Source: Rickettsiales bacterium
GTDB taxonomy: Bacteria > Pseudomonadota > Alphaproteobacteria > Rickettsiales > UBA1997
Reading direction: 5' to 3'
DNA: 40,456 bases
NCBI GenBank assembly: GCA_028040005.1
Contig: JAOFKK010000001.1
Coordinates: 1 to 40,456, forward strand
Part shown: positions 8,171 through 40,456 of the stretch, piece by piece
Numbering within the stretch: position 1 is the first letter of the stretch
Layout: every line of letters begins with the position of its first letter
Made by a program: the position numbers and the translations under genes
Notes under the pieces: generated by a model
Databases searched by the model: none
What the model saw: the letters and a program-made list of their open reading frames with translations, nothing else
What the model was told of the DNA's origin: nothing

Positions 8171-9163
8171 ATGAAAGATCAAAATCATCAAACATTAACT
8201 TCCGAACTTAAAGAGGAAGATAAAAATCAAGAAAACATCTTAAGACCCCTATATCTAAAAGACTTCTTAGGGCAGAAAAAAATTAAAGAAAATCTTACCA
8301 TCTTTATTGAATCAGCAAAAAACCGCTCCGATTCTCTTGATCATACCCTATTTTACGGCCCTCCAGGTCTTGGAAAAACAACCTTAGCACAAATTATTGC
8401 CCATGAGATGGGGGTTGGATTTAAATCAACCTCTGGCCCCATGATTTCAAAATCCGGTGATTTAGCGGCAATTTTAACCAATCTACAAGAAGGTGATGTA
8501 TTATTTATTGATGAAATTCACCGTTTACATATTGCCATTGAAGAGGTTCTATATTCAGCAATGGAAGATTTTAAACTTGATATAATAATCGGTGAGGGGC
8601 CAGCAGCAAGGGCAATTAAAATTGACTTACCCAGATTTACATTAGTTGCTGCCACCACTAGAATTGGCCTTTTAAGTAACCCAATGCGTGACCGCTTTGG
8701 CATACCTTTAAGATTAAATTTTTATGAAATTGACGAATTGCAAGAAATTGTCATTCGAGATGCCAAAATTCTTAATTTACAAATAACAGATGATGGCGCC
8801 ACTCAAATCGCCAAAAGATCTAGAGGAACACCAAGAATTGCAATTCGCCTTTTAAAAAGAGTTCGTGATTTTGCATCTTTTGCTAAAGAAGATATTATTA
8901 ATGAACAAATTGCTGATGAATCTCTAAAAAAATTAGAAATTGACAATATAGGTCTTGATATATCTGATCATTTATATTTAAACTTCATCCTAACTAATTA
9001 TAATGGAGGGCCGGTTGGTATTGACACAATCGCATCAGGAATTAGCGATGAAAAAGACTCAATTTGCGACACAATTGAACCCTATTTAATACAAATAGGC
9101 TTTATTGATAAAACACCAAGAGGTAGAATTTTAACTCAAAAAGCTTTAAGCTATCTAAAATGA
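8171..9163 (+). CDS. ruvB: Holliday junction branch migration helicase RuvB
   Basis: [30 protein letters not shown] and a full-length match to the RuvB pattern. Confidence 0.97.
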
Positions 9164-25123: not shown

Positions 25124-25209
25124 GGAGGGATGGCCGAGCGGTCAATGGCAGCAGACTGTAAATCTGCCCGCATATGCGTACGTAGGTTCGAATCCTACTC
25201 CCTCCACCA
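25124..25209 (+). tRNA. tRNA-Tyr (anticodon GTA)
   Basis: Acceptor GGAGGGA/TCCCTCC, anticodon stem GCAGA/TCTGC with loop CTGTAAA, long variable arm CGCATATGCG, T-arm GTAGG TTCGAAT CCTAC, and an encoded CCA. Confidence 0.95.
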
Positions 25210-25258
25210 CTGATTTTGTGGTTGAAATATTTTGAAGGTTGTAAGATAATAATGCTGT
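25192..25258 (+). repeat. 67-bp direct repeat, copy 1 (last 18 nt of tRNA-Tyr plus 49 bp downstream)
   Basis: Identical to 25355-25421 except for one C/T difference. Confidence 0.9.
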
Positions 25259-25354
25259 AAAAATTCGAACCTACGTTTAAATTAAATATGGTTCGACAGG
25301 AGCATTTGAGCGTAGCGAAAAGCGCAACTGCTAGTTAAGCGAAGCGCCAACGTC

Positions 25355-25421
25355 ATCCTACTCCCTCTACCACTGATTTTGTGGTTGAAATATTTTGAAG
25401 GTTGTAAGATAATAATGCTGT
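25355..25421 (+). repeat. 67-bp direct repeat, copy 2 (orphan tRNA-Tyr 3' fragment plus flank)
   Basis: See copy 1. It is preceded by 96 bp of G+C-richer sequence that contains an inverted tRNA-Tyr T-arm fragment, ATTCGAACCTACGT, at about 25262-25275. Confidence 0.9.
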
Positions 25422-25523
25422 TTAAAACTCCCCTTGAAATAAAATATTATTATAAATAATATTTTATGGCATGGGGGTAAAAAGCAATTAAGGCGCTTTT
25501 TTGTCTCAAAGCAATTTATTGCT

Positions 25524-25560
25524 TTGGTGGGGTATTAACACTTCCCAACACATAAATTAC
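25524..25560. repeat. Third copy of the dispersed TTGGTGGGGTA...ATAAATT repeat
   Basis: Aligns with 4771-4804 and 4857-4890. It is preceded by the 9-bp-stem hairpin CAAAGCAAT/ATTGCTTTG. Confidence 0.5.
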
Positions 25561-25616
25561 TTAATTACTACAGTAAAATATTTTTTTTGGTAAGGTATTG
25601 ATGTTACGACAGCAAT

Positions 25617-25845
25617 ATTATGACCAAATTAATAAGGACAGGTGGCTGAGTGTATGAGCGCAGCAGTTTGAAAACTGATTTTTTTTCTCGGCAGTTTTCA
25701 AGCTATTACTTAAATCGAGAAATTATGACCAAATTAATAAGGACAGGTGGCTGAGTGTATGAGCGCAGCAGTTTGAAAACTGATTTTTTTTCTCGGCAGT
25801 TTTCAAGCTATTACTTAAATCGAGAAATTATGACCAAATTAATAA
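25617..25845 (+). repeat. 105-bp tandem repeat (two full units plus the start of a third that runs into the genuine tRNA-Ser)
   Basis: Units start at 25617, 25722 and 25827. Each full unit holds the upstream flank ATTATGACCAAATTAATAA, a degenerate tRNA-Ser 5' half, a T8 run and an inverted copy of the anticodon region. Confidence 0.9.
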
Positions 25846-25935
25846 GGACAGGTGGCTGAGTGGTCGAAAGCAGCAGTCTTGAAAACTGCCGAGCGTGCAA
25901 GCGTTCCGTGGGTTCGAATCCCACCTTGTCCGCCA
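25846..25935 (+). tRNA. tRNA-Ser (anticodon TGA)
   Basis: Acceptor GGACAGG/CTTGTCC (one G-T pair), anticodon stem GCAGT/ACTGC with loop CTTGAAA, long variable arm, T-arm GTGGG TTCGAAT CCCAC, and an encoded CCA. Confidence 0.95.
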
Positions 25936-25979: not shown

Positions 25980-26303
25980 TTATCTAGGTCTACAAGCCCA
26001 GTAATGGCGGTACTTGCCGAGTTTCATTTTCAAAAAGCACTCTAAAAATCTTGTAACCGATTCTCTTTTTATCCATATCTGATAGTGGTTTTTTTGCAAA
26101 TCAATTTCTTGCAGCAAATCTTCGCCACCAGTGATCTTAATTGATTCTCCGGATGGAGGATTGCATTTTTTTGCAGATAAACTAAGAAGATGCCTCTTGT
26201 CGTTTATTTTATCTTCATCTCTTACGCTAACTAAAGAAACCTTTAACTTACCAGCATCATAGATTAATGTCTCGTTTACTGTTTCAAAATATTTCTTAAT
26301 CAT
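25980..26303 (-). CDS. Hypothetical 107-aa protein, last gene of the defence-like operon
   Basis: The start overlaps the res stop (ATGA at 26300-26303). I recognise no domain. It ends 45 bp from the tRNA-Ser 3' end. Confidence 0.5.
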   Translation of the reverse strand: MIKKYFETVNETLIYDAGKLKVSLVSVRDEDKINDKRHLLSLSAKKCNPPSGESIKITGGEDLLQEIDLQKNHYQIWIKRESVTRFLECFLKMKLGKYRHYWACRPR

Positions 26304-29269
26304 GACTTATTTCCCATAGCTTGATCAAAAAAATTCTTATAATTACTAGCTACCATATAGCGAGCATCTTCACCAAGAGCTTCAAAATGTTTGCGTCCAC
26401 AGTCAATTTTTCCTTTTTCTAAATCACGCAACATTCCTTCAAATGTATCTCCTTTTGTTTCTACAACAAAATAAAGGTGATCCTTTCCATCTTGTTCTAT
26501 CAAAACAGCCCAATCTGGATTATATGATCCAAGTGGCGTCTCAATTTTAAACCAGGCTGGCAATTTTGTATAAACTTTTACTTCTTCATTTTTCTCAAAA
26601 GATTCAGCTAAGCTGGACTCAATATTTGAATCATAAACCACATGATCATAGGTAGATTTTGCAGCCTCAATCATATTTTTATTGAGATATCCATTAAGCT
26701 CTTCGCTTTCAAACATCTCTTGGGCGTAGAAGTGGTCATTACCAATTTTGTGATATTTTATTCCATCAACAATGAATCTTCTCATTTCACGCTTAATTAA
26801 CTCCTTAACTCCATCGATAAATTTTTGAGGATTATTTTTAAAGGCTTCTAGTCGGCCACTTTCTAATAAAATATTAAGTATCGATTCTCGCTTTAAATTT
26901 GTTTCATTTTGCAGATAACTAAGAATATCCGGAATTTCATAATCACGAGCATCATATAAATGATTACTCTCCTGACTATCAATAACATTCACACCACCTT
27001 TACTAATTTCTGTTTTAGCTTTGGCATAATTAAATCTAGTTTTCCCAACTATTAGATTTTTTCCAATAGATTCAGCGCATTTTTTTATTAATTCCTGCGG
27101 ATCAAATTCAACATTATAAATGGTTTTGTATTTTACTTTATCCCACAATTCTTTAAACTCAGGGCTTTCAAAAACAGCCTTGTTTAGCTTTATAGTTTTT
27201 TTATCATCATTATTTTTAATATTAAGGCCGCCAGCAACTTTCTTTAAAGTAGCTATTATTTGCTCAGATTGCTCCACATAAGCATCTGGCAATTCAACAC
27301 TTCCTTCTTTAAGAGCCTTCTTAAGATTATCACTAACTTTACCCTTATTATCGATATATTCCTTTGTCAGCAAATGATTCCACACATTTTCTGAAGCCTG
27401 CGCTCCCAAAAACTTATCCTCTCCTTTTTCATCTTGATAAACAATATTAGCAAATAAATGCTCCTCAACAACTCCAAAGCGGATATTTTCTTCTTTTTCT
27501 ATTTCCTTTTGCAAGCCGTCAACAAATGATTCGTATGATTCATTGGCCATAACCGTTAATGTATTAACATCAAAACCATGAACTCTTTGTCCTTCTTGAT
27601 TAACGCAAATTCTTAAACCCCTTCCTATTTCTTGTCGTTTTTTGATAACTGATCCAGTTTCATTTAAGGTGCAAATCTGAAAAACATTTGGATTATCCCA
27701 ACCCTCTTTTAAAGCAGAGTGAGAAAATATAAATTTCAATTTTGAGTCAAAACTCAATAACTTCTCCTTATCTCTCATAATAAGGCCATATGTATCTTCA
27801 TCAGCCTTAGTATCACCTCTAGTATCTTTAGCGCCCCCCTTGTCGCTCGAGAAATATCCATTATGAACATTCTGGGCTAAAGTGGAAACATCCAACTCCT
27901 TAAGCAGATTGTTGTATTTTGGTTTTTTGATTAATTTAGAATATTCTTCCTCAAAAATAACCGCATATTTACCCTTCTCATTAGCGGCGCTGTAATCACG
28001 ATAATTAGAAACTCTATCAATAAAGAACAGACTCAAAACTTTAATGCCAAGAGGAGTTAATTTTAATTCTCTATTTAAATGCTCTTCAATTGTTTTGCGA
28101 ATTTGTAGCCTTTTATATTCATCTTCATTCACCTCGCCAATTGCTTGATTTAATCGAAGAATTTCCGGCTTACTGGTAAAATCAATATACTCGTTACCTT
28201 GCTCAGAGTAAATATCATTTATGATATAACCATCGTAAATTGTACGACCATTTGAAATAGTAAGTAAATCATCACCTTGCTTCACCCATTTTGTAATTTT
28301 CTCAACATTGGTTTTTCTTTGAATAGAAAGTTCAATTTTAGCTTTATGTCCTTTCTTATTATCAACTTCCAAAAGCTTAATATAGGCCTTATTATCCCCG
28401 TCTTTCACCTGAATTGAGGCAACTTCTATTTGCTTAACCAACTTTTGTTCATAAGCATCAATAGAATCTAGTTTATAAAGCATATCATGCTTTTTGGTAT
28501 GAGTTGCAGAATAGCGGAAGGTGCAAAGTGGATTTAGAGATTTAATTGCCTGCGAAGATTTATCTGTTGTATCCACGCTTTGCGGCTCATCAATAATAAC
28601 AATCGGATTAGTTGATTTAATAAAATCAATTGGCACTCCTTGCATTTTGTCATTCCAACGATGAATAATATTTGCAGTAGTTTCTTTAGAAGGGTCAGAA
28701 AAGCTTTTACGAAAAGCGTCAATATTAATAACCATAATTTGAATACAGTCATTAGCGGCAAAACTTCTAACTTGTTCTAATTTGGAAGAATTATAGAAAA
28801 AATAATCAACCGGAACATTATCATATAATTCTTTAAAATGATCTTTGGTCATTTCTAAAGATTTAAAAACGCCTTCTTTTATGGCAATGCTTGGCACTAC
28901 AATAATAAACTTACTAAAACCATAAAGTTTATTCATCTCAAAAACAGAGCGTAAATAAACATAGGTTTTTCCAGTTCCAGTTTCCATCTCAATGGTAAAA
29001 TTACGATCCTGCAATTCTTTAGATTGTTTTAAACCGTTTTTAAGCTGAATAGATCTGACATTATTTAAAATTTCCTCATCAATTAATTTTAAGCGATTGC
29101 CATAACCTTTATCAGTTTGATTAGACCATAATGCATCGAGAAGACCTCCATCTTTAATAGATGGCATAGAAAAAGCAGATTTACAAAGCTCTTGCCCTTC
29201 AAAAACTGAGCAAACTGCTTCCCAAGCTTTTTTCTGATGGATTTGATTTGGATCGAATTTAATTTTCAT
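26300..29269 (-). CDS. res: Type III restriction enzyme Res-like subunit (SF2 helicase plus C-terminal PD-(D/E)xK nuclease)
   Basis: Motif I EMETGTGKTYVY, motif II VIIDEPQS, ALKEGWDNPNVFQICTL, and a nuclease-like PDWAVLIEQDGKDHLYFVVETKG. Confidence 0.88.
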   Translation of the reverse strand: MKIKFDPNQIHQKKAWEAVCSVFEGQELCKSAFSMPSIKDGGLLDALWSNQTDKGYGNRLKLIDEEILNNVRSIQLKNGLKQSKELQDRNFTIEMETGTGKTYVYLRSVFEMNKLYGFSKFIIVVPSIAIKEGVFKSLEMTKDHFKELYDNVPVDYFFYNSSKLEQVRSFAANDCIQIMVINIDAFRKSFSDPSKETTANIIHRWNDKMQGVPIDFIKSTNPIVIIDEPQSVDTTDKSSQAIKSLNPLCTFRYSATHTKKHDMLYKLDSIDAYEQKLVKQIEVASIQVKDGDNKAYIKLLEVDNKKGHKAKIELSIQRKTNVEKITKWVKQGDDLLTISNGRTIYDGYIINDIYSEQGNEYIDFTSKPEILRLNQAIGEVNEDEYKRLQIRKTIEEHLNRELKLTPLGIKVLSLFFIDRVSNYRDYSAANEKGKYAVIFEEEYSKLIKKPKYNNLLKELDVSTLAQNVHNGYFSSDKGGAKDTRGDTKADEDTYGLIMRDKEKLLSFDSKLKFIFSHSALKEGWDNPNVFQICTLNETGSVIKKRQEIGRGLRICVNQEGQRVHGFDVNTLTVMANESYESFVDGLQKEIEKEENIRFGVVEEHLFANIVYQDEKGEDKFLGAQASENVWNHLLTKEYIDNKGKVSDNLKKALKEGSVELPDAYVEQSEQIIATLKKVAGGLNIKNNDDKKTIKLNKAVFESPEFKELWDKVKYKTIYNVEFDPQELIKKCAESIGKNLIVGKTRFNYAKAKTEISKGGVNVIDSQESNHLYDARDYEIPDILSYLQNETNLKRESILNILLESGRLEAFKNNPQKFIDGVKELIKREMRRFIVDGIKYHKIGNDHFYAQEMFESEELNGYLNKNMIEAAKSTYDHVVYDSNIESSLAESFEKNEEVKVYTKLPAWFKIETPLGSYNPDWAVLIEQDGKDHLYFVVETKGDTFEGMLRDLEKGKIDCGRKHFEALGEDARYMVASNYKNFFDQAMGNKS

Positions 29270-29300
29270 ACTCTTTAATGATTAGTTGTTGGCTATTATT

Positions 29301-29606
29301 TTATTCAAAAATAAATAATGTTTTAGCTGATTCATCTATATGTCTTTTTAGTGGTGGATAATTGATAAAATTATAGCCTTTTATATCGATTTTTAAGCCA
29401 AGGCTTGATTCATCAAAAAGAGTGTTAATTCTGTCAATATCTTTCTGCTCTAAATTGCCATATAACACCAAATCAAGATCTGAATATCCTTTATATTTTC
29501 CATTAGCTCTGGAACCAAAAATTCCTACTTTGGTGATTTTATCCTTATAACTATTTATTATATTTAAAATGATTTTTAATTCATTATCTGATAACCCATT
29601 ATTCAT
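29301..29606 (-). CDS. mntA: Minimal nucleotidyltransferase (MNT, HI0073-like; MntA-type antitoxin candidate)
   Basis: GIFGSRANGKYKGYSDLDLVL matches the GSx(n)DxD NTase motif. I place the start at the ATG at 29606 (MNNGLSD), one nt after the HEPN stop, rather than at 29651 as in the track. Confidence 0.8.
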   Translation of the reverse strand: MNNGLSDNELKIILNIINSYKDKITKVGIFGSRANGKYKGYSDLDLVLYGNLEQKDIDRINTLFDESSLGLKIDIKGYNFINYPPLKRHIDESAKTLFIFE

Positions 29607-29607
29607 T

Positions 29608-30024
29608 TTATTTATTTGTTTCATGAAGTAATTTTTCATATAAATAATCAAATAGCCCGAAGTGATTATTTTCTATATTTTCTATAACTTGCGAGAATAC
29701 CTCGTGACTATATTGGTGACTCATCTTATTGCGATCATCCAAAGTTTTCATCCATTTTTCTCTATCAATAATAATTTTTGCTTCAATGGCCTTAATAATA
29801 ACTTCCTTAGGAGTAATTTTTTCTAAAACAACACCCTCATTATCTAAATAATCTTTGAGAGTTTTCCAGGCAAGTTCCCAGCTATATTCAAATCTTTGAA
29901 TAATTCCCTCTTCTTCTAATGGGGTTATTTTTTTTTCACTTCTCAATTCCATTGCCTCTCTTAAAAGAAGAAAAGCTCTTTTGTAATTATCAAATCTATA
30001 TTCCCATCTTAATTTTTCGCTCAT
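29608..30024 (-). CDS. hepT: HEPN-domain protein (HI0074-like nucleotidyltransferase substrate-binding family; HepT-type toxin candidate)
   Basis: Family-typical W..R..N...A...L.EA and IQRFEYSWELAWKTLK, plus an Rx4H motif (RNKMSH). Confidence 0.8.
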   Translation of the reverse strand: MSEKLRWEYRFDNYKRAFLLLREAMELRSEKKITPLEEEGIIQRFEYSWELAWKTLKDYLDNEGVVLEKITPKEVIIKAIEAKIIIDREKWMKTLDDRNKMSHQYSHEVFSQVIENIENNHFGLFDYLYEKLLHETNK

Positions 30025-30056
30025 GTTATTTTATAAATTAATTTTAATTGATTAAA

Positions 30057-32108
30057 TCAAAGGCTTTTAATATCTTCAATTCCGCTGCGTTTCAGTGTGG
30101 TAATGGCGTTGGTTTTAATTACATCATCCCTAAAGCCATTATCCGAAAATACCACTCGCATAATCTCAGGTGAAAGTTCCTCTTTTAAGGCGCAAATACC
30201 ATTTACCACTTCCATATTAATTCCATCATCAAGACATATTATTAAAGCCCCAAGACCAATGATATAAATCTCCTTTCCAGCAATATTTCTAGTTTCAATA
30301 GGAAGGGTTAAATCAAGCCCATATTTTAAAAGAATTTCAAAAACTATATCTTCATTTGAACGATCATTTTTAATGTAATCAACTGACGCAATAAGATCTT
30401 CTTTTAAGCTATCAAAACCAGCTTCCCATCTTTTTATGTTTGAGCTATCAAGTTTAAAAACTTTAAAGCCCAAATCTCCTTGATAATCAGGATTTTCTTC
30501 TTTGATTTTCTTGGAGGCGCGACGGATTCGTTCTTTGGAAATATCACAGACATTCTCAACAAAAGATAAATTATTCTTTGAATAGTATTGTGCTTTGTCA
30601 GCAGGTTTTACTTCTTCAGGTAATTGTATAGAAATAGAATTTATACTCTGTTTGCTTTCTAAGCTTTTTAGAAAACACGCATGTGCTGTGCTACATGAGC
30701 CTGCAAAATAATCTAGAACCAGACCGCTTTCGTTGTCCTCGAAGCATAGCTCAAGCATTCTCTGGATGAATTTAGTTGGTTTTTTTCCGTTTGGGTACGG
30801 CACTCCTCCTTCTAAAGATACGCTACTCCAAGATAGGTCATCCCACAGAGTTCCAACTTTATCTTTTTTAATGATACCTTCGTTTGATCGCTCTGCTACA
30901 CCGCTCAAGTAGCTAACCAAACGTTTGGTTTTGCCTTCAAAGGAGACTCTAGTTCTCTTACCTTTGTTTCGCCCAGAGACAGGTTTATAATATATATTTA
31001 TCAAACCATCATGCTCTGGAGCGGCATTGGCTACTCTATCACGAATAGATGTCTGAGCATTTTCAGTGGTAAAAATACTTTCGAAGTATTTCTCGTATAC
31101 TAATTCTTGTTCAATATTTTCTTCTTTTGCTAATTGTGAAACTGTTTTTATTTCATAACCACTTACTGTATAAACCTCGATATCGTTTCCAGAGCCATCT
31201 TTGATGGTTTTCAAGTAGTTTTCACTTCCTTCTTTTGTAAGGATTTTGGTGTACGCGAACCCTTTGCCAGCATCCTTACGGTCATTAATATATTTAATGA
31301 GTAATTCAACCTTGTATATATCATTGAACTTTCTGAAGGATTGGCTCTTTGAGAAACAAAGGAGGTGCTCAATATTTTTCTTTAAGCGTCTGTCTTCGCC
31401 ACCACCACTCGCGCCTGAGCTATCTTTTGCTTTAACGCTAATTAGGTTGATAAAGTTTTCTTCGCCAAATATTTCATTGCAAATTTTGATTAGATTATCT
31501 AACTCATTGTCATCAATCGAAATAAAAATAACCCCATCATCTTGTAGCAAATTTCTCGCCAATTTCAACCTTGGATACATCATATTTAGCCAATTAGTGT
31601 GGTATCTTCCTGCTGAGTTAGAGTTTGTTCCAAGTTTTTTACCGCTCTCATCTGTTTGCCCTGTCATTTTTAAATAATGCTTTATTCCATCTTTAAAATC
31701 ATCCTCATAAACAAAGTCATTTCCTGTGTTGTAAGGAGGGTCAATATAAATCATTTTCACCTTGCGGTGATAAGATTTTTGTAAAAGCTTTAAAACTTCT
31801 AAATTATCGCCTTCAATAAAAAGATTTTGTGTATTGTCAAAATCAACCGATTCATCTTTTGCTGGTCGTAGCGTTCCTGTGCTTGGAGTTTGTGCCAATC
31901 TGCCTGCTTTTCTTTTGCCATGCCAAGTGAAATTATAATGATCTTCATCTTGGTTTACATAATTTCCTAAAAGCTCTTCTAATTGCTCAAATTTAATTTT
32001 GTCTTCACTAAAAACTTCAGGGAATAACTCTTTTAGCTTTTCGATATTTTGCTTAACAATATCTTCACTTTGCATATCTTTGGCTAACAATTTTTTCATT
32101 TCGCTCAT
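30057..32108 (-). CDS. mod: Type III-like Mod DNA methyltransferase (beta-class; N6-adenine or N4-cytosine)
   Basis: Motif IV IYIDPPYNTGNDF comes before motif I VLDYFAGSCSTAHA. Size and order are typical of type III Mod. Confidence 0.88.
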   Translation of the reverse strand: MSEMKKLLAKDMQSEDIVKQNIEKLKELFPEVFSEDKIKFEQLEELLGNYVNQDEDHYNFTWHGKRKAGRLAQTPSTGTLRPAKDESVDFDNTQNLFIEGDNLEVLKLLQKSYHRKVKMIYIDPPYNTGNDFVYEDDFKDGIKHYLKMTGQTDESGKKLGTNSNSAGRYHTNWLNMMYPRLKLARNLLQDDGVIFISIDDNELDNLIKICNEIFGEENFINLISVKAKDSSGASGGGEDRRLKKNIEHLLCFSKSQSFRKFNDIYKVELLIKYINDRKDAGKGFAYTKILTKEGSENYLKTIKDGSGNDIEVYTVSGYEIKTVSQLAKEENIEQELVYEKYFESIFTTENAQTSIRDRVANAAPEHDGLINIYYKPVSGRNKGKRTRVSFEGKTKRLVSYLSGVAERSNEGIIKKDKVGTLWDDLSWSSVSLEGGVPYPNGKKPTKFIQRMLELCFEDNESGLVLDYFAGSCSTAHACFLKSLESKQSINSISIQLPEEVKPADKAQYYSKNNLSFVENVCDISKERIRRASKKIKEENPDYQGDLGFKVFKLDSSNIKRWEAGFDSLKEDLIASVDYIKNDRSNEDIVFEILLKYGLDLTLPIETRNIAGKEIYIIGLGALIICLDDGINMEVVNGICALKEELSPEIMRVVFSDNGFRDDVIKTNAITTLKRSGIEDIKSL

Positions 32109-32125
32109 TTTTTAATAATTAATAT

Positions 32126-32878
32126 TTATAAATTTTGTTCTAATTTTTTAATTAATTCAATCTTGTTTTTAATCTCAACATTTAACTCTACTTTACGGTT
32201 AAACTGAGTTTCTTTTTTTAAATCAGATTTTAGCACTGATATTTCATTTTCTAAATCAATAATTTGCTTTAAATATTTTTTGCGGATCAGTGTTTTCTCA
32301 ATAGTTGTTTTGCCATAATTGCCGCTGTAATTAGCAGCGCCAAGAGCAATTAATCTTTTGACTAAATCTTGATAAAATTCGTATAGATTTAAGGAAGAGA
32401 GTTTTTTCAAGTAGCAGTCATTTAAAAAATCCTTTTGAATTTCACTTAAATTTTGGCTATCTATCATTTCTGTTAAAAATTCTTCCGTAACCAATAACTT
32501 TGATTTATCAGCTTGGTTAATTCTTTTATTTGCCAGGCTTAGGGCAAATTTATCATTAAAATTAAACAATAATATCAACGGATAAGGAATTGCCTTATTT
32601 ATGAATGTAGCAATTTTTCTAATGCGATTATCACTTGCTAGATCAATTTTTAGAATTGCTATTTCTTGATATTCAACCAGTTCATCTTGATATTTGGCAA
32701 TGCCTGTATTGCTGGGCTTTAAAGTAAAAAGCCAAGTGATTTTTTTAATATCATCTTTGAGGGCTTTTTTGTCGGTCGCATCTAAATTGACATTTTCAAG
32801 GAATAGTTTTTTAAAAATGGGTTTATCTATTTTGCAAGAATCTGGCAGTTTTAAATTATTGAGAAAAATTTGGGTCAT
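32126..32878 (-). CDS. DUF4391-like protein of unknown function (250 aa)
   Basis: The sequence flavour (IFKKLF...L....K..L..DI.KI.W...L......I.........EI.I..I.L.......I......IPYP.IL) matches my memory of DUF4391 proteins found between helicase and methylase genes. This needs HMM confirmation. The start overlaps the SNF2 gene stop (ATGA). Confidence 0.6.
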   Translation of the reverse strand: MTQIFLNNLKLPDSCKIDKPIFKKLFLENVNLDATDKKALKDDIKKITWLFTLKPSNTGIAKYQDELVEYQEIAILKIDLASDNRIRKIATFINKAIPYPLILLFNFNDKFALSLANKRINQADKSKLLVTEEFLTEMIDSQNLSEIQKDFLNDCYLKKLSSLNLYEFYQDLVKRLIALGAANYSGNYGKTTIEKTLIRKKYLKQIIDLENEISVLKSDLKKETQFNRKVELNVEIKNKIELIKKLEQNL

Positions 32879-35800
32879 GATTTTTGCTCCTTAATAATTA
32901 AAAAGCTTATCACTTCAAAATCTTCAATTCCTTTGAAACTATCTTGAGATAGAATAGTTCCGCCTCGATTAAATAGGCTTTCAACACCTTTCTCATCATT
33001 TTTTCCTGATATATTTGATATTGCCGCTTCTAACATAAATTTGTAAGAGGACATATCTTTGCCGTTTTTTGTGGCTTCTTTTAGGTTTTTAATGGCATTT
33101 TCATCTAAGCTTTTTGCGCCTGAGCAAAGTTTTTTGAAAATATCGAGGATTTTTTTGCTTTGCAGATGGTTGAGAATGATATTGCCGTCACTGGCAACAT
33201 AAACCATGTAATATGGCGCCAAAGAGTAGTTTGAGTTTTCACTAACTTCTTTATGAATATCGCGCAAACAAAAAATTGTTCCTTCAGGTATTTCATCTAA
33301 ATTTCCTGAAATTGCTGCAAAAAAGCCAGAAGGAGATTTTTCTAAAACGGTTAAGTTATCTTTCATAAAGCTGGATAAATCCATGCGAAAATCGTTTAGT
33401 GTCATATCAGTAATTGAAACAGAGCCGTCAATATCCTCAATATCAATTACTGCATCTTGCAATTGTTTCATCTGGTTGCGGCGATATTCTAGATCATTCA
33501 TTTGGCGAGTTTCATCATAATCAATTACATTTTCCTCACCAGTTGCAGAAATATCTAATAAAACCATTCTTCCACTTACTCGGGCTTCTAGATTGATATA
33601 TTCATCTAGCTCCATATTAGGCCAAAAGTTAGCTAATTGAATTTTATCATTATGCGAGCCAAGTCGATCAACTCGACCAAATCTTTGAATTATTCGGACG
33701 GGATTCCAGTGAATATCGTAATTTATTAGCATATCGCAATCTTGAAGATTTTGTCCTTCAGAAATGCAATCTGTGGCAATTAATATATCAATGTGGTTTG
33801 TGGCTTCGGAGTCGATCTTATTTCTTTCTTTAGAGATTGGTGAGAAGTTGGTTAAAATATTATTTAAATCTTTACCAATATTTTTATCACTACATTGATT
33901 TAAGCCACTTCCAGTAACAAGGGCAGAATGAATTTTGTGCTTTTCTTTTACCCAAGGAGAGATGTTTTTGTAAAGATACTGTGCCGTGTCTGAAAAGGCG
34001 GTAAAAATAATAACTTTTTTATTATTTTCATTAAGAGGATTGGCAATTTTATCGCTTATTACCTCTTTTAGTTTTTGTAATTTAGCATCTTTAGTGGCAT
34101 CAATTTTTTTGGCTTCTTCTACTAAAATTCCAAGCAATTTGTAGTCTTCTTCTAAATCCTGTTTCCATCTGATGAGGTCAATATCTTGTATTAGAACTTT
34201 AATTTTGTTGCCGATTAGATATTCCTCAAATTCTGATGAATCGGTTTCTATGTCTTCAATGCTTAATTCTTCAAATTCTGAATTTTCTTGATCTTGGATT
34301 TGCGATAACAAATTACCAATCTTGTTTTGAAGCCTTTCTACTGTGATATGAAATGAATTTATTGAGCTTTCCATACGCTTCAACATATTCACCCTCATTA
34401 AGTGAATCATATTGCGCTCACGATCAACCTGACGAAAAACTGAAGCACCATCTTTAACTGCCTGATCATATTTGCGGCTGTATTCTTCTTGCTTATCCAT
34501 ACGCACATATTCAAGCGGGGCATAGGCGGCAAGATTGAGCTTCTTGATTGTCATATTGACATCTTTAAGCGGAGGGAACTTTCCATCAATGTCAATATCA
34601 GCCTTAATATTTTTTGGTTTTAGACGCTCGGGGAATTTGCCAATTTCAGCAACATCATAATATTTCTCTATGTGCTTTCTGGATCTGGCGATTGTTAGAA
34701 TATCAAGCAACTTAAAATAACCGAAGTTCATTTTTTCAAGCAAGCTTGCTGTTTTTCTTTGTCCATCTGGCAATTTTAGCCATTCATTGAATTTGGTCTG
34801 AGCTATTTTTAATGTGTTTTCAATGCTGGCTATTCCATGATCTGAAAGTGCATTGTCTTTTCCTTCGGTTATGAAGGCGACTTGGTTTTTTAAATCATTC
34901 ATTCGACTATTTACTGGCGTTGCCGACAGCATTAAAACTTTGGTCTTTACGCCAGCCCTAATGACTTGATCCATTAGTTTTTGATATCTGGAAATTGCTC
35001 CTGTTTTGGTTCCGGCATTTTTAAAATTATGTGATTCGTCAATTACGATAAGATCATAATTTTCCCAATTTAGGGTTTCTAAATTTACCTCTCCTGATTT
35101 TCCTGATGTTCTGCTTAAATCTGTATGATTTAAAACATCATAATTGAAGCGATCAGCGGATAAAATATTACGCTTATCATTTATGGTAAATACTGTCCAA
35201 TTTTCACGCAGTTTTTTTGGACATAAAACAAGAATGCGATCATTGCGAAGTTCGTAATATTTTATAACCGCTAAAGCCTCAAAGGTTTTTCCCAAGCCAA
35301 CACTATCAGCTATTATGCAGCCATTATATCTTTCTAATTTATCAATTGCCCCTAATACTCCATCTTTTTGAAATTTATAGAGTTTATTCCAAACAAGAGT
35401 CTCCTTAAAGCCAGTTTTTGATCTAATAATATTGTCTTCATCAATATCTTCTATAAAGTCCTTAAATAGGTTATAAAGGGTTATGAAATAAATTAAATTT
35501 GCTGGTTTTTCTTCAGCTAAATATTCCAGTTGCTCAGTTATTTCTTTTTTGATGTTTAAGGCAGATTTTGGATTGTTCCAGATTGTATCAAACCACTGTA
35601 ACATTTGATTTGTTCCTTCTTTGTCAGATATGCCGATATTAATCTCAATAGCACTAGAATTTGTTTCTCCTAACCCAGAAGTCGTAAATCCAGAACTGCC
35701 TTGAATGCAAAAATCTTTACCATCTTGGTTTTTTACATGAAAAAGATTCTGATTAACAGCAGATCCAACTAGTGATTTAATTTGCACATCTTTAGCTAGC

Positions 35801-36069
35801 CAAGAAGAGAATTCTTTGGCTATTTGAGCCTGATCTAAATTATTTTTAAAGCGTATTTCCTCCAAGCTTCCAGCTAAAGTATGAATAAAATTATCATCCC
35901 ATTTTGATAGTAAAATTCTGGCTCCAGACAGAGTTGACAACTCTTTTTTAAGCGAAGCATAGCCATATATTGAAAAAAGATGCGACAAGACAGAAAGTTT
36001 TGCATTCTTACCAATTGAGTTTTTTAACTCTAAGCCGACTTTGCCATGATTTTTGTTATCAAGTAGCAT
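32875..36069 (-). CDS. SNF2-family helicase with an N-terminal PLD-like (HxK) domain (1064 aa)
   Basis: SNF2 motifs ADSVGLGKTFEA, LIVIDESHNFKN, MLSATPVNS, ATDCISEGQNLQDCDMLINYDIHWNPVRIIQRFGRVDRLGS. The N-terminus has HGK (res 8-10) and LFHVKNQDGKDFCIQGSSGFT (res 110-129), which resemble PLD HKD signatures. Confidence 0.88.
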   Translation of the reverse strand: MLLDNKNHGKVGLELKNSIGKNAKLSVLSHLFSIYGYASLKKELSTLSGARILLSKWDDNFIHTLAGSLEEIRFKNNLDQAQIAKEFSSWLAKDVQIKSLVGSAVNQNLFHVKNQDGKDFCIQGSSGFTTSGLGETNSSAIEINIGISDKEGTNQMLQWFDTIWNNPKSALNIKKEITEQLEYLAEEKPANLIYFITLYNLFKDFIEDIDEDNIIRSKTGFKETLVWNKLYKFQKDGVLGAIDKLERYNGCIIADSVGLGKTFEALAVIKYYELRNDRILVLCPKKLRENWTVFTINDKRNILSADRFNYDVLNHTDLSRTSGKSGEVNLETLNWENYDLIVIDESHNFKNAGTKTGAISRYQKLMDQVIRAGVKTKVLMLSATPVNSRMNDLKNQVAFITEGKDNALSDHGIASIENTLKIAQTKFNEWLKLPDGQRKTASLLEKMNFGYFKLLDILTIARSRKHIEKYYDVAEIGKFPERLKPKNIKADIDIDGKFPPLKDVNMTIKKLNLAAYAPLEYVRMDKQEEYSRKYDQAVKDGASVFRQVDRERNMIHLMRVNMLKRMESSINSFHITVERLQNKIGNLLSQIQDQENSEFEELSIEDIETDSSEFEEYLIGNKIKVLIQDIDLIRWKQDLEEDYKLLGILVEEAKKIDATKDAKLQKLKEVISDKIANPLNENNKKVIIFTAFSDTAQYLYKNISPWVKEKHKIHSALVTGSGLNQCSDKNIGKDLNNILTNFSPISKERNKIDSEATNHIDILIATDCISEGQNLQDCDMLINYDIHWNPVRIIQRFGRVDRLGSHNDKIQLANFWPNMELDEYINLEARVSGRMVLLDISATGEENVIDYDETRQMNDLEYRRNQMKQLQDAVIDIEDIDGSVSITDMTLNDFRMDLSSFMKDNLTVLEKSPSGFFAAISGNLDEIPEGTIFCLRDIHKEVSENSNYSLAPYYMVYVASDGNIILNHLQSKKILDIFKKLCSGAKSLDENAIKNLKEATKNGKDMSSYKFMLEAAISNISGKNDEKGVESLFNRGGTILSQDSFKGIEDFEVISFLIIKEQKS

Positions 36070-36075
36070 AATATT

Positions 36076-36258
36076 TTATTTTGTTTTTTCCTGTTTTTTA
36101 ATCCAATTATCTACTTCACTTTTCCTAAATTTCCAAGCATTGCCAACTTTAAACCCCGGAACTTTCTTTTCTGATGCAAAGCGATAGGCTGTTTTTTCTG
36201 CTATCTTAAGATAGTCAGCCAGCTCTTTCATTGTCATGATGTCGTTATTAGTAGTCAC
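36076..36258 (-). CDS. Excisionase/MerR-type HTH protein (60 aa, GTG start), first gene of the operon
   Basis: 57 of 60 residues are identical to the C-terminal 60 residues of the 2395..2583 product. The stop lies 6 nt before the SNF2 start. Confidence 0.8.
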   Translation of the reverse strand: MTTNNDIMTMKELADYLKIAEKTAYRFASEKKVPGFKVGNAWKFRKSEVDNWIKKQEKTK

Positions 36259-36509: not shown

Positions 36510-36833
36510 ATGAAAAAGACAATTATTATCATATTAGCAGCTTTAGTTTTAATTGCCGCTGGCTTCTTGTTTTATGGGTTCGCAGATAATAGCACCATGC
36601 CGCATTTGAATGATAATGAAGAAGAGGTAATTGATGGAAATAATCTTGATAATAAAGCTGAGAAAGATTCTCAAAATGATTCTGAGGTCAATAAAAATGA
36701 TACAGAAAATAGTGAATCCGAGGAAGTTGATTCTGATGATAGTCAGGAGGATGAAAATAGCAATGAAAGTGAAACTAATGATAAATCAGATTATGATACA
36801 TATGATGATAGTGAGGAACAAACTAAGGAGTAG
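36510..36833 (+). CDS. Secreted or membrane-anchored, extremely acidic D/E/N/S-rich protein (107 aa)
   Basis: N-terminal hydrophobic segment MKKTIIIILAALVLIAAGFLFYGF, then about 80 residues that are almost entirely D, E, N, S, T and K. Confidence 0.6.
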   Translation: MKKTIIIILAALVLIAAGFLFYGFADNSTMPHLNDNEEEVIDGNNLDNKAEKDSQNDSEVNKNDTENSESEEVDSDDSQEDENSNESETNDKSDYDTYDDSEEQTKE

Positions 36834-36958
36834 AATATTAAAAAATATTTAAATCTTTAATTGTAGCTAATCCAGAAAGAATTGATTTTGATAAAATTGA
36901 AGTCAGGTCAACTAGATTAGATTTTTAAGTGTAATATTAACTTTTTAATAAATTTATT

Positions 36959-37198
36959 ATGAAAAAAATTAGCTCTTTTTTACTTTTAATTTCTGCTTTT
37001 ATTATAATTAGCTCTGCATCTTCTATGGCCGCAGAAAATGACAATTTGAATGATTATGGTGATAACGAGACTCATTATGACGATAGCGATACCTATGATA
37101 ACTCTAATGATACTTATGAAGATAATACAGAGTTAGAAGATGTTGAATCAAGCAATTCTGAAGTTGAAGAGGAAAGCGAATATGATGAAGAAGAATAA
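36959..37198 (+). CDS. Secreted, extremely acidic D/E/N/S/T/Y-rich protein (79 aa)
   Basis: Signal peptide MKKISSFLLLISAFIIISSASSMA, then an acidic region with repeated D-x-Y-D-like motifs, ending EYDEEE. Confidence 0.6.
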   Translation: MKKISSFLLLISAFIIISSASSMAAENDNLNDYGDNETHYDDSDTYDNSNDTYEDNTELEDVESSNSEVEEESEYDEEE

Positions 37199-37241
37199 TT
37201 CTCTTTGTCATATTTTATCGAAATTCTAATTCTTTAAAAAT

Positions 37242-39119
37242 ATGAAGAAGATACTTTATACCCAAAAAACTTTAGGTCCTGTCTCAGATTTAGAGCGCCA
37301 CTTACCAGCAGAGTGGTGGAAAACATTATTTAATTCTCTTTATCTTAAAACAGATGGAGATGTGGTTGAAAATAATATTAATACTGAATTTGAGGTAGAC
37401 CTTCTGATTGGTAAGCTGGATCTAAAAAAAGAAGATAATATTCTTGATTTATGCTGTGGTCAAGGAAGGCATTCTTTGGAGCTGGGTATGCGTGGTTTTA
37501 ATAATGTCTCTGGAATTGATCGATCTCGATATCTTATAAGATTGGCGCGCAAAAGAGCTCAGAAAAATGGTTTATTCATGCGTTTTTCTGAAGGAGATGC
37601 TCGTAAAATAAGGCTGCAAAGCGATACCCATGACTGCGTTTATTTAATGGGTAATTCTTTTGGTTATTTCGAGCAAGAAGATGATGATGCTAATGTATTA
37701 AAATCAATAAAAAGAATTCTTAAATCAAATGGCAAATTAGCTCTTGATATCACTAATGGAGAATTTTTGCGTAACAACTTTGAGTCTCGTTCATGGGAGT
37801 GGATAGATCAAAATCAGTTTGTATGCCGTGAGCGCTCCCTTTCTGCTGATAAAGAAAGAATTATATCTCGTGAAGTTATTGTGCATGCAGAAAAAGGAGT
37901 GATAACCGACCAATTTTACGCTGAAAGACTTTATGATGAAAATCAGATTAAATCTTTATTGAAAAAAGTTGGATTCGAAAATATTTCTGTAGAAAAAGAC
38001 AACATAATTGCCAGCTCAACCAGAGGTCATGATTTAGGTATGATGGCAAATAGGTTATTTATTACAGCTAAAGCTCCTGAGAAAATTATTCAACAAAAAA
38101 TAACCGCTAAAAAGCAAGAAGTTTTGGTACTTCTTGGAGATCATACCTTGTCAGACACAATAAAGAAAAACGGAACTTTTAATGAAGAGGATATTGTCAC
38201 CATCGACAAACTGAAGGATAATTTGTCTTTACTGCCAAATCATAATTTTCAATATTTTGGCAATCATCAAAATTTACTCAAATATTTTCAAAATAACAGC
38301 CCTCAATTTGTATTTAATTTATGTGATGAGGGATTTAAAAACGATGCTAATATGGAATTACATATTACAGCGATTTTGGAAATGTTTGGCATTCCTTACA
38401 GTGGAAGCGGCCCATCTACTCTTGCTCTTTGTTACAATAAATCAATTGTTCGAGCGATTGCTAGTGATTTAGATATAGCAGTTCCTCAAGAAGCTTATTA
38501 TGGTGACATGGATCAAGCAGCATCCTTGGCATCAATATTTCCAGCTCTCTTAAAACCAAATTTTGGTGATAGCTCTATTGGCATCACTACTGGGGCAGTA
38601 GTTCATAACTCTAAGGAATTTATGAGCTATCTAGATAAACTGAAAAAAGAGTTTCCCAAAACTCCAATATTAATCCAAGAATTTTTGGAAGGCAATGAGT
38701 ATAGCGTTGGTATTGTTGGCAATCCAGGAAATTACCAAATACTTCCAATTTTAGAGGTTGATTATAGTAATTTACCAAAAGATTTACCAAAAATATTGGG
38801 TTATGAGTCAAAATGGCTACCAGAATCTCCTTATTGGAAAAATATCAGCTATAAAGAATCTGCTATTGGCGAAGAAGATAGGCGCCAACTAATAGATTAT
38901 TCAACAAAGCTTTTTGAGCGAACAGGTTGTCGTGATTATGCCAGATTTGATTTTCGTGCTGATAAAGATGGTGTAATTAAGCTTCTAGAAGTTAACCCTA
39001 ATCCTGGATGGTGCTGGGATGGTAAGTTAAATATTATGGCTGGATTTCAAAACACATCTTATAAAGAATTGCTAGAGATGATTCTAAGGGCAGCAAAAGA
39101 AAGGCTAGGATTAGTTTAG
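37242..39119 (+). CDS. Fusion protein: N-terminal class I SAM-dependent methyltransferase plus C-terminal ATP-grasp (D-Ala-D-Ala-ligase-like) domain
   Basis: SAM motif I ILDLCCGQGRHSLEL and post-I/II GDARKI..., VYLMGNSFGY. The ATP-grasp part has ALLKPNFGDSSIGI, ILIQEFLEGNEYSVGIVGN and RFDFRADKDGVIKLLEVNPNPG. Confidence 0.8.
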   Translation: MKKILYTQKTLGPVSDLERHLPAEWWKTLFNSLYLKTDGDVVENNINTEFEVDLLIGKLDLKKEDNILDLCCGQGRHSLELGMRGFNNVSGIDRSRYLIRLARKRAQKNGLFMRFSEGDARKIRLQSDTHDCVYLMGNSFGYFEQEDDDANVLKSIKRILKSNGKLALDITNGEFLRNNFESRSWEWIDQNQFVCRERSLSADKERIISREVIVHAEKGVITDQFYAERLYDENQIKSLLKKVGFENISVEKDNIIASSTRGHDLGMMANRLFITAKAPEKIIQQKITAKKQEVLVLLGDHTLSDTIKKNGTFNEEDIVTIDKLKDNLSLLPNHNFQYFGNHQNLLKYFQNNSPQFVFNLCDEGFKNDANMELHITAILEMFGIPYSGSGPSTLALCYNKSIVRAIASDLDIAVPQEAYYGDMDQAASLASIFPALLKPNFGDSSIGITTGAVVHNSKEFMSYLDKLKKEFPKTPILIQEFLEGNEYSVGIVGNPGNYQILPILEVDYSNLPKDLPKILGYESKWLPESPYWKNISYKESAIGEEDRRQLIDYSTKLFERTGCRDYARFDFRADKDGVIKLLEVNPNPGWCWDGKLNIMAGFQNTSYKELLEMILRAAKERLGLV

Positions 39120-39122
39120 TGT

Positions 39123-40031
39123 ATGTCAGACGATAATCATAATATTCGCTCAATTGAAAGTATTGGATGGTTTATACTCCATTGTTTGCTTTTTTCTCTA
39201 ATTTCAGTATTGACAAAATATGTCATGAAAACTGGTATCTCCATTGTAGAGATTATTGCTTTTCAAACATTTTTTACTTTTATATTTTTAACAATCATCA
39301 AGAAGGGTACATTTAAAATATTACCTACAAAAAGAATATTATTTCTTCATGCTGTTCGTGCATTTCTTTGGTTAATCGCTACTGCCATATTCTTTAAAAG
39401 TCTTAACCACATATCACTTCCAAAAGCCACATCACTCAGTTTTTCTACTCCATTATTTACCATAATTTTTGCAATTATTATCTTAAAGGAAGTAATGCAT
39501 AAACATTATATTATTCCATTATTTTTGGGATTTATAGGAATGTTGGTGATTTTACGCCCAGGATTTGATGGGTATGACTCTGAATCATTACTAGTTTTAG
39601 TGGCTTGTATTTTGTGGTCAATTACCGACATCATAATAAAGCATCTGTGCGCGTCCCATGAAAATGCAAATATAACATGGTTCTTTACTGGCTTTAGTTT
39701 TTTAATGATTCTTCCAATATTGCCACAATTCTGGACAACTCCAAATATAATGCAATTTGGAATTATGATGGCAATAGCAGTATTATTTTTACTAAATATA
39801 TTATCGCTAACTAATGCCTATAAGCTTGGTAGTATGACCGTTATGCAGCCATTTGCTTTTACAAACTTAATTTTTGTAGCAATTTTATCATATTTTGTAT
39901 TTGATGAAATGATTGTAACTCCAACCATTATTGGAAGTGTTATAATTATTATGAGTACAAGTTTTATTGCTTATAATGAGCGTAAAAAATATCAAAAATG
40001 GTTATCTTATAAAATTGGTAGTGATTTTTGA
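39123..40031 (+). CDS. EamA/DMT-superfamily transporter
   Basis: About 10 TM segments. It starts 3 nt after the fusion gene's stop. Confidence 0.75.
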   Translation: MSDDNHNIRSIESIGWFILHCLLFSLISVLTKYVMKTGISIVEIIAFQTFFTFIFLTIIKKGTFKILPTKRILFLHAVRAFLWLIATAIFFKSLNHISLPKATSLSFSTPLFTIIFAIIILKEVMHKHYIIPLFLGFIGMLVILRPGFDGYDSESLLVLVACILWSITDIIIKHLCASHENANITWFFTGFSFLMILPILPQFWTTPNIMQFGIMMAIAVLFLLNILSLTNAYKLGSMTVMQPFAFTNLIFVAILSYFVFDEMIVTPTIIGSVIIIMSTSFIAYNERKKYQKWLSYKIGSDF

Positions 40032-40041
40032 TGATCGTAGT

Positions 40042-40456
40042 TTAAACTTTTAATTGAAATTCTGTCCATTTACCAATTTCAGATCTGCAAATAATATCGC
40101 CCTCAAAAGCGGTCATTATTCTTTTGCAAAATGGCAACCCCAAGCCAGTTCCATCTTTTTTACCAGAGGTAAAGAAGCTTTCAAAAATTAATGCCAATTT
40201 ATCCTTTTCAATTCCAGGGCCGTAATCTTTAAAATACAGATAATTGCCATCTGGTTTTGCTTCGGTTCTAATTTTAATTTTTGATTTATAATAAAGGGAG
40301 TTTTTAAGCAGATTAAAAATAACAAAAATCATCATATTTTCATCACCCCTAAAAATGAAGTCATCTTCTAAATCTAGATTAATCAGATTTTTTTCTTCCT
40401 GATTCTTGTAAGAATATTGCTTAATTGCCTTTTTGACTGTATCAGAAATCGATAGA
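40042..40456 (-). CDS. Sensor histidine kinase, C-terminal HATPase_c part; the 5' end runs off the right edge
   Basis: N box FNLLKNS, G1 DYGPGI, G2 GTGLGL. The frame stays open upstream of the track's ATG (40335) to the window end (hand check). Confidence 0.85.
   Translation of the reverse strand, partial: LSISDTVKKAIKQYSYKNQEEKNLINLDLEDDFIFRGDENMMIFVIFNLLKNSLYYKSKIKIRTEAKPDGNYLYFKDYGPGIEKDKLALIFESFFTSGKKDGTGLGLPFCKRIMTAFEGDIICRSEIGKWTEFQLKV

Follow-up and report, generated by a model that had tools for sequence, protein, structure and literature searches.

The stretch of DNA considered here, called the window throughout, comprises the 40,456 nucleotides (nt) at positions 1 to 40,456 of contig JAOFKK010000001.1 from a Rickettsiales bacterium (GTDB lineage UBA1997; assembly GCA_028040005.1), a contig with a GC content of about 30%. 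Four consecutive genes on its + strand are the subject of this analysis. The first two, acid1 (36510..36833, 107 amino acids (aa); recognised as an open reading frame (ORF) and from its translation and composition) and acid2 (36959..37198, 79 aa; an ORF with in-frame orthologues), encode mini-proteins, hyper-acidic and exported or anchored in the case of acid1, and with a Sec signal in that of acid2. They are followed by the gene for a 625-aa fusion protein (37242..39119), to which Pfam assigns Methyltransf_25 and Dala_Dala_lig_C: its N-terminal half (aa 1-285, 37242..38096) is an NmbA-like class I S-adenosylmethionine (SAM) methyltransferase with a β-strand cap, and its C-terminal half (aa 286-625, 38097..39119) an ATP-grasp ligase of the Ddl fold whose nucleophile pocket is remodelled. 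The fourth gene (39123..40031) encodes an EamA/DMT transporter of 302 aa with two EamA domains, and its start codon lies 3 nt past the fusion stop codon. A preliminary description made from the DNA alone had placed the four ORFs at these coordinates and had named the methyltransferase, Ddl-like ATP-grasp and EamA domains, all of which is confirmed. It had also proposed that the fusion enzyme modifies the acidic proteins or, alternatively, makes a small methylated peptide-like metabolite for export, and had known of no characterised fusion of this type. A literature search likewise found no characterised methyltransferase-ligase fusion (the work of Iyer et al. 2009 on ATP-grasp amidoligases lay outside its coverage). 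Each domain is of a known kind, and the fusion, the rebuilt pocket and the gene partners are without a characterised counterpart in the literature.

The ligase half is matched by Pfam Dala_Dala_lig_C over residues 429-615 (E 2e-19), and its best Pfam, NCBIfam and Protein Data Bank matches are all Ddl. A model obtained with AlphaFold2 (AF2) from a 36-sequence alignment (mean confidence score, pLDDT, of 81) resembles Ddl structures with Foldseek template-modelling scores of 0.77-0.80. For a comparison at the level of residues, the fusion-family profile was aligned to E. coli DdlB, whose numbered residues were verified. The equivalents of DdlB K144, S150, K215, R255, D257, E270 and N272, which serve ATP, Mg and the acyl-phosphate, are invariant in the family. 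The pocket for the second substrate is different: DdlB Y216 corresponds to W525, and the D-Ala2-binding residues S281/L282 align to G594/K595 within an invariant W590-C-W-D-G-K595 segment. A C361-D-E-G motif is likewise conserved in the family.

Some database entries name fusion proteins “D-alanine--D-alanine ligase” or “ddlA1”, the other source names being generic, and the best fold and sequence matches are Ddl and VanA. This would be expected if the protein were an ordinary peptidoglycan D-alanine--D-alanine ligase with an added methyltransferase domain. However, the protein scores far below the NCBIfam Ddl models (101.6 bits where the cut-off is 243, and 97.9 where it is 245.65; PRK01372 / TIGR01205), different invariant residues replace Y216 and S281/L282, and no mur/ftsQ-type neighbourhood was seen in the surveyed loci. 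An ordinary Ddl function is consequently very improbable, the database names are probably wrong, and a firm clustering with bona fide Ddl, which the preliminary description had listed as evidence that would speak against its proposal, does not hold at 101.6 bits.

The methyltransferase half is matched by Methyltransf_25 (residues 67-164, E 2e-17), Methyltransf_31 and Methyltransf_11, and its SAM motifs (D69-x-CCGQG, D93, D119 and G137-NSFG) are invariant. In the AF2 model, its pLDDT is mostly 80-94, and its Foldseek matches are small-molecule methyltransferases. The closest solved structure is 9RI2 (NmbA; E 4e-23), which matches fusion aa 24-246, cap included. NmbA is a bacillithiol N-methyltransferase that methylates the cysteine amine of a small molecule, and its orthologues have been defined by E<=1e-20, identity >25%, coverage >80% and similar length (PMC12719100). 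The match found here spans NmbA residues 19-234 of 266 at about 30% identity, in a window protein that is fused and, with 625 aa, not of similar length. The annotations of the 40-kb window contain none of the bacillithiol genes BshA, BshB and BshC. With its SAM motifs invariant, and likewise the Ddl-type residues that serve ATP, Mg and the acyl-phosphate, the protein looks catalytically competent in both halves, but the ligase half is very probably not a D-Ala-D-Ala ligase. The fusion protein has no signal peptide and is itself acidic (isoelectric point 5.2-6.0, with conserved positions richer in D/E than in K/R); judged from its sequence, this acidity appears to fit a cationic substrate better than a polyanionic one.

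The fusion is widespread. A word-indexed search returned more than 5000 relatives, and the best 120 of these are all full-length with at least 60% identity, their hosts including Rickettsiales, Gammaproteobacteria, Nitrospinota, Planctomycetota and Chlamydiia; the labels of the highest-identity relatives are mostly Rickettsiales or Alphaproteobacteria. At least 376 GTDB species representatives carry the fusion, with about 60% identity between phyla; the cultured Kistimonas scapharcae JCM 17805 (L007) is one carrier. An exhaustive HMMER scan, run on 50%-identity representatives, recovered 503 of them at E<=1e-30; some of these consist of the methyltransferase alone (280-300 aa) or of the ligase alone (340-370 aa). 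Loci around the fusion gene were fetched from genomes (80), from metagenomes (80) and by exact-protein look-up (16), and clustering of the fusion proteins at 90% identity gave the 99 lineages in which neighbours are counted below; neighbours were also surveyed without prior families, by blastp clustering.

In Berkiella-like gammaproteobacteria, the region 0.3-5 kb downstream of the fusion encodes one or two additional ATP-grasp paralogues that stand alone and have 330-380 aa and 49-70% mutual identity (L011, L014, L017, L022, L026, L030 and L104). In L014, L026 and one L017 paralogue, GLNWLTL stands in place of WCWDGK; one L017 paralogue keeps WCWDGK and others differ, which suggests that these paralogues use a different second substrate. 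The glutathione-reductase-like, hexapeptide-repeat, oligopeptidase A, MFS and AroE neighbours found in one Berkiella-like group were set aside as plain synteny.

The two mini-proteins that precede the fusion in the window stand out by composition. The acid1 product begins with an anchor or signal, MKKTIIIILAALVLIAAGFLFYGF, and continues into a D/E/N/S tail that includes SDYDTYDDSEE. That of acid2 has a classic Sec signal ending in SSASSMA with cleavage before AE, and its mature part is free of K/R, contains DSDTYDNSNDTYEDN in a D/E/N/S/T/Y tail and has the C-terminus EYDEEE. The fraction of D+E is 0.30-0.32 and that of K+R 0.03-0.07 in the two proteins, whereas the next-highest D+E fraction among the 68 window ORFs of at least 60 aa is 0.20; their acidity is thus beyond chance. 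Both are also real, fast-evolving genes, since public gene callers predict the two of them (acid1 is also called in same-species contigs, L081), the acid2 frame survives an in-frame 6-nt indel in a relative with 92% nt identity, and the ratio of non-synonymous to synonymous substitution rates (dN/dS) is about 0.38 for acid2 against 0.08 for the fusion. In L001, L175 and L176, an acid2 orthologue is in frame with 67% aa identity, and the enzyme there is 96% identical. Searches of Pfam and NCBIfam with acid1 gave compositional sub-threshold matches only.

Hyper-acidic mini-ORFs with a signal peptide occur near the fusion in 7 of the 99 lineages, all low-GC (28-43%) close relatives, so that a candidate restriction of such ORFs to the window species was dropped, six more low-GC lineages carrying them. 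In L084, whose fusion is 77% identical, a 63-aa acidic ORF (…SYEEEEYYNDDDYNFDEEESEEGGANY) lies 24 nt upstream of the fusion, and in L018/L101 one lies 56-107 nt downstream. Elsewhere, an acidic ORF is found between EamA and rimK, immediately upstream of rimK (L086, where rimK is a separate gene encoding a true RimK with Rimk_N), beyond a MATCAP gene that separates it from the fusion (L005), beside EamA (L091/L172), or after polyamine genes (L171). The distance to the fusion is thus 24-107 nt in three lineages (window, L084, L018/L101) and at most 3.3 kb in four more, and while order and strand of acidic ORF, EamA and fusion vary between lineages, proximity is kept. Five of the seven lineages share a 2-Cys motif (signal peptide ... 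C-x(4-8)-[ED]-[IVM]-A ... W-x(6)-C-[MI]) that has no Pfam match (L005:9916-10170, L091:9907-10149, L172:9588-9836, L171:6171-6443, L018:7955-8173 and L086:2681-2986). Reverse profile searches of 5.8 billion proteins, of limited sensitivity for such short, biased sequences, found eight members of this family, all eight beside a fusion gene in varied positions and orientations. The acid2-type profile found three proteins, of which the two checked (L175/L176 and L084) are encoded directly upstream of the fusion, the third being P0281 on a 1.1-kb contig. A positional test in the fetched loci gave p of about 0.0015, or 0.008 if the window and L084 are taken as one event.

Part of this arrangement has moved between bacteria as a unit. 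A 2.3-kb segment of the window (36877..39205, + strand), which comprises acid2, the fusion and the first 31 EamA codons, is 92.4% identical in nt sequence to L001:5640-7964. There it forms an insert of 34% GC in a contig of 50% GC labelled Verrucomicrobia, and it splits a PQQ_2 β-propeller gene. An assembly chimera was considered for L001 and is ruled out by two further independent assemblies, L175 (a Logan run) and L176 (GCA_041294365.1). Since insert and flanks agree at 99.3% identity between three independent assemblies, this is a real and recent horizontal gene transfer (HGT). In the recipient, acid2 and the fusion are intact and EamA is truncated; acid1 was not transferred and is therefore dispensable for the transferred unit.

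These observations bear directly on the notion that the acidic mini-proteins are substrates. In such a scheme, the ATP-grasp half would ligate an amino acid or a polyamine to C-terminal or side-chain carboxylates of the mini-proteins before Sec export, the methyltransferase would methylate them, and M32 or MATCAP carboxypeptidases would remove the added tails, much as happens with tubulin in the TTL/MATCAP cycle or with RimK and ribosomal protein S6. The close spacing and the positional test speak for this, as do the finding of all eight 2-Cys members beside the fusion, the co-transfer of acid2 and fusion with both intact, the MATCAP gene between fusion and acidic ORF in L005, the acidic ORF immediately upstream of rimK in L086, and the Y or E-rich runs in which several acidic tails end. 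However, no acidic ORF was found in the fetched flanks of 92 of the 99 lineages, whether or not a signal peptide was demanded (in high-GC lineages, a search for signal-less acidic ORFs returned only spurious antisense ORFs), and an enzyme about 60% identical between phyla argues for one universal substrate. The mini-proteins also evolve rapidly, having diverged to 67% aa identity where the enzyme remains 96% identical. The mini-proteins are moreover exported, while the enzyme lacks a signal peptide. Its ligase half matches Ddl, RimK, Rimk_N and TTL being absent from the 12 Pfam matches of the fusion (E<=0.01). In its acidity, the enzyme is also unlike the enzymes known to grip polyanionic tails. 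Modification of the mini-proteins is therefore improbable. The cross-linking, tailing or carboxyl methylation proposed in the preliminary description fits neither a ligase that is Ddl-like, and not of the RimK or graspetide type, nor a methyltransferase that is NmbA-like and not of the PIMT type. Nor does it fit Sec signals on the mini-proteins of a cytoplasmic, itself acidic enzyme. The fusion is present in at least 376 species, and in the lineages surveyed neither acidic ORFs nor EamA accompany it family-wide; because window-type acidic neighbours are absent from most of these lineages, a general module of enzyme plus substrate peptide is refuted by the yardstick of the preliminary description itself.

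More informative are the genes that recur beside the fusion in distant lineages. The strongest functional clue is a homospermidine pathway beside the fusion in two phyla with decarboxylases of different fold. Homospermidine-type polyamine genes can be firmly assigned near the fusion in 5 of the 99 lineages, which belong to two phyla. In the low-GC loci L086, L169/170 and L171, a pyridoxal-phosphate (PLP) decarboxylase of the Orn/Arg type and a DS-family gene lie 0.1-4.5 kb from the fusion. An agmatinase-family ureohydrolase joins the operon in L169/170 and L171, whereas the part of L086 that was fetched showed none. In two Planctomycetota lineages (L045/L122 and L058/L150), a corresponding set of three genes is found upstream in divergent orientation, beyond a TetR gene, and uses the pyruvoyl enzyme PvlArgDC, which is non-homologous to the PLP decarboxylase. 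At 588 and 595 bits, both DS proteins exceed the 500 bits that NCBIfam sets for its 1,9-bis(guanidino)-5-aza-nonane synthase equivalog, and the L169 ureohydrolase scores above the agmatinase cut-off. Clusters of ADC, SpeB and SpeY are recognised homospermidine pathways (PMC10407285). A PLP decarboxylase that occurs downstream of the fusion in an alphaproteobacterial group scores below the lysA cut-off and was counted as weak polyamine evidence.

The transporter provides a second link to these pathways. The window EamA is matched by PF00892 in two stretches (E 2e-21), and it has orthologues of 50-58% identity in L086, L091, L169 and L172; outside the low-GC clade, EamA was not a neighbour of the fusion in the surveyed loci. 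EamA joins the polyamine operon in L169 and L086. Because the L169 gene is placed inside its operon, between the DS-type synthase and agmatinase genes with overlapping gene ends, the window EamA looks, from gene order and homology, like the transporter of that polyamine operon relocated beside the fusion. The window itself contains no DS-family, ureohydrolase or Arg/Orn decarboxylase gene; its polyamine link therefore rests on the orthology of fusion and EamA. A second, unrelated EamA-family transporter is encoded 13 kb upstream (23531-24433, - strand). Of the two proposals in the preliminary description, a small methylated metabolite with an exporter fits these data better, given EamA orthologues in or beside homospermidine operons and polyamine genes in two phyla. 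The accompanying suggestion that the acidic proteins are unrelated to the enzyme was overstated in view of the seven low-GC lineages, the reverse searches and the joint transfer of acid2 and fusion.

Nevertheless, the fusion could make an intracellular metabolite, such as an N-methyl dipeptide that resembles an osmolyte or a low-molecular-weight thiol and is recycled by M32, with EamA and the acidic ORFs as mere syntenic neighbours in one clade. Most neighbourhoods are indeed unconserved, and in L002, which at 84% identity is the closest distinct relative, the fusion is preceded by a tRNA and a DUF3050 gene and followed by galU, with neither an acidic ORF nor EamA at the locus. Sigma-70 promoters and intrinsic terminators were predicted no more often than in shuffled sequence and so gave no operon evidence; this result speaks neither for nor against a joint transcript of the four genes. 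For riboswitches or other RNAs, Rfam at gathering thresholds on the window and nine relatives returned tRNAs only. The low-GC clade also shares other synteny, namely a Crp-family regulator divergently upstream (L003, L018, L086, L091, L169, L171 and L172) and a 2-oxoglutarate (2OG)-Fe(II) oxygenase downstream (2OG-FeII_Oxy_3, ~220 aa), which overlaps or abuts the fusion stop in L005, L091, L169 and L172 and lies at +2.9 kb in L062; the window has neither neighbour. Passive synteny is, however, hard to reconcile with changes of order and strand under persisting proximity, with the presence of polyamine genes in a second phylum, where the decarboxylase is non-homologous, and with the retention of an intact acid2 in the transferred unit. 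It is thus possible, yet on balance unlikely, that these genes are functionally independent.

Carboxypeptidases are the other recurrent partners. In 23 of 168 loci, the gene directly downstream on the same strand, 5-92 nt beyond the point where the fusion match ends, encodes a Taq-type M32 carboxypeptidase; these loci correspond to 14 lineages of Gamma- and Betaproteobacteria, Nitrospinota and Nitrospirae (among them L012, L017, L020, L021, L030, L033, L038, L041, L048, L050, L055, L061, L073, L075, L103, L115, L130, L135 and L164). Together, fusion and M32 look like an unreported ligase/carboxypeptidase operon. MATCAP (PF08014) adjoins the fusion in four lineages, once joined to an FGase domain, which brings the lineages with a carboxypeptidase partner to 18. 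These partners suggest a product with a free C-terminal carboxylate and favour a basic amino acid as the acceptor, whereas the polyamine operons favour a polyamine acceptor.

The interpretation preferred here, tentatively and with somewhat less than even confidence, is that the fusion uses a cationic substrate of the arginine or polyamine type to produce a small amide that is N-methylated, with EamA and the exported polyanions as accessories peculiar to the clade. A small, N-methylated, amide- or dipeptide-like product and a cationic substrate are suggested by the Ddl-type fold with its rebuilt pocket, the NmbA-like half, the acidity of the enzyme, the existence of stand-alone forms of both domains, and the polyamine and carboxypeptidase partners. 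The protein would then be a cytoplasmic bifunctional enzyme for small molecules and not an enzyme of peptide maturation. Its ligase half may activate a carboxylate, probably that of an amino acid with a free α-amine, as the acyl-phosphate, and couple it to an amine on a cationic compound that belongs to the arginine, agmatine or homospermidine branch; the NmbA-like half would N-methylate an amine of the substrate or of the product. In other lineages, the product may be turned over by the adjacent M32 or MATCAP carboxypeptidase. In the window clade, EamA probably moves the polyamine or a derivative across the inner membrane, and the exported, Tyr-rich hyper-acidic mini-proteins could plausibly be periplasmic polyanions that bind polycations, which is the weakest step of this scheme.

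Several points weigh against this interpretation. The firm homospermidine assignments are confined to the five lineages mentioned, the window not among them; in five others, the sole hint is a PLP decarboxylase whose score falls short of the lysA cut-off, and about 60 of the 99 show none of the neighbour families tested. The carboxypeptidase partners suit an X-Arg/Orn/Lys dipeptide better than an acyl-polyamine. The data fit O-methylation as well as N-methylation, and the tight association with acidic ORFs, seen in the reverse searches, the joint HGT and the positional test, could equally reflect substrates. There is also a small chance that the enzyme couples carboxylates to homospermidine-type polyamines and N-methylates them with one of two further consequences. 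It might produce a new class of N-methyl-aminoacyl-polyamine metabolites, conceivably a thiol-polyamine conjugate given the kinship to NmbA; or the mini-proteins of the window clade might be decorated, yielding silaffin-like polyaminated polyanions or, in bacteria, a cycle of tail ligation and carboxypeptidase action resembling tubulin tyrosination. The chance is small for the two taken jointly.

If the small N-methylated amide from a cationic substrate were confirmed, it would probably represent a new branch of bacterial polyamine/arginine metabolism, a methylated amide with dedicated carboxypeptidase turnover. The fusion is an orphan family that is present in hundreds of species of at least five phyla at about 60% identity, and the identity of its product would fill this gap. 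In addition, the polyanionic mini-proteins and the DMT transporter, as a small system that is mobile by HGT, could show how polycations are handled in streamlined low-GC envelopes.

Other features of the window provide context for the locus. Type IV secretion genes are scattered among housekeeping genes, with metE also present: an insertion-sequence-type integrase (rve), a VirB9/CagX-like gene and a VirB11-like gene (T2SSE) lie at 3397-4230, 6542-7324 and 10029-11033, and ruvB at 8171-9163, a pattern of dispersed vir genes that recalls Rickettsiales. A 10-kb restriction/defence island on the - strand (25980-36258), beside tRNA-Ser, ends 250 nt before acid1. It encodes a ResIII helicase with a RE_endonuc domain (989 aa), an N6_N4 DNA methylase (683 aa), a DUF4391 protein, a nucleotidyltransferase/NTase_sub_bind pair, an HTH_17 (AlpA-like) protein and a 1064-aa SNF2 helicase with a weak PLD-like N-terminus. 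The adjoining tRNA-Tyr and tRNA-Ser (25124-25935) are bordered by repeated tRNA fragments: a perfect tandem pair of 105-nt units (25617-25826) duplicates the 5' part of tRNA-Ser with its upstream region, and a 72-nt repeat (25192-25263 and 25355-25426) duplicates the 3' end of tRNA-Tyr. These repeats look like scars of integration beside the defence island. Convergent with EamA, a 97-aa ORF (40042-40335, - strand) has HATPase_c only and is apparently a truncated histidine kinase.

Among characterised systems, the closest to the ligase half are DdlB, DdlA and VanA, with which it shares the three-domain ATP-grasp fold and the residues for ATP, Mg and acyl-phosphate. It differs from them in its scores far below the family cut-offs, in the WCWDGK pocket and the change of Y216 to W, in the attached methyltransferase, and in a gene context devoid of cell-wall genes. 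Glutathionylspermidine and trypanothione synthetases, which are ATP-grasp-like, ligate a carboxylate to an amine of a polyamine, and they have an amidase domain and no methyltransferase. They share with the present proposal the ATP-dependent amide chemistry on polyamines, and the polyamine gene link fits this comparison. Graspetides (microviridin, and fuscimiditide with its PIMT-type O-methyltransferase) resemble the locus in that an ATP-grasp enzyme and a methyltransferase adjoin small ORFs rich in Asp/Glu/Ser/Thr. However, the window ligase belongs to the Ddl clade, its methyltransferase is NmbA-like and not PIMT-like, and the small ORFs, found in only 7 of the 99 lineages, have Sec signals in place of leader peptides.

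The RimK/S6 and tubulin TTL-MATCAP systems likewise combine a ligase with a carboxypeptidase, as does the fusion with M32 (14 lineages) or MATCAP (four), and E-rich or Y tail ends are a further likeness. This likeness comes from the neighbourhood only, as the fusion has no RimK or TTL match in Pfam at E<=0.01, the candidate substrates are exported and the enzyme is acidic. NmbA shares with the fusion the β-strand cap and an N-terminal EW...LYLK segment, and is a small-molecule N-methyltransferase acting on an α-amine; the two differ in that identity is about 30% and the methyltransferase is here fused to a ligase, fused forms being unmentioned in the NmbA study (PMC12719100). In belactosin and cystargolide biosynthesis, a SAM methyltransferase and ATP-grasp ligases build small peptides, with coupling onto an ornithine-containing amine (PMC11427300). 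Those enzymes are separate proteins of a large actinomycete cluster and the methyl group is a transient carboxyl methyl ester; as a comparison of role, they nevertheless provide a precedent for the cooperation of a methyltransferase and an ATP-grasp ligase on a peptide-like metabolite that contains a basic amino acid.

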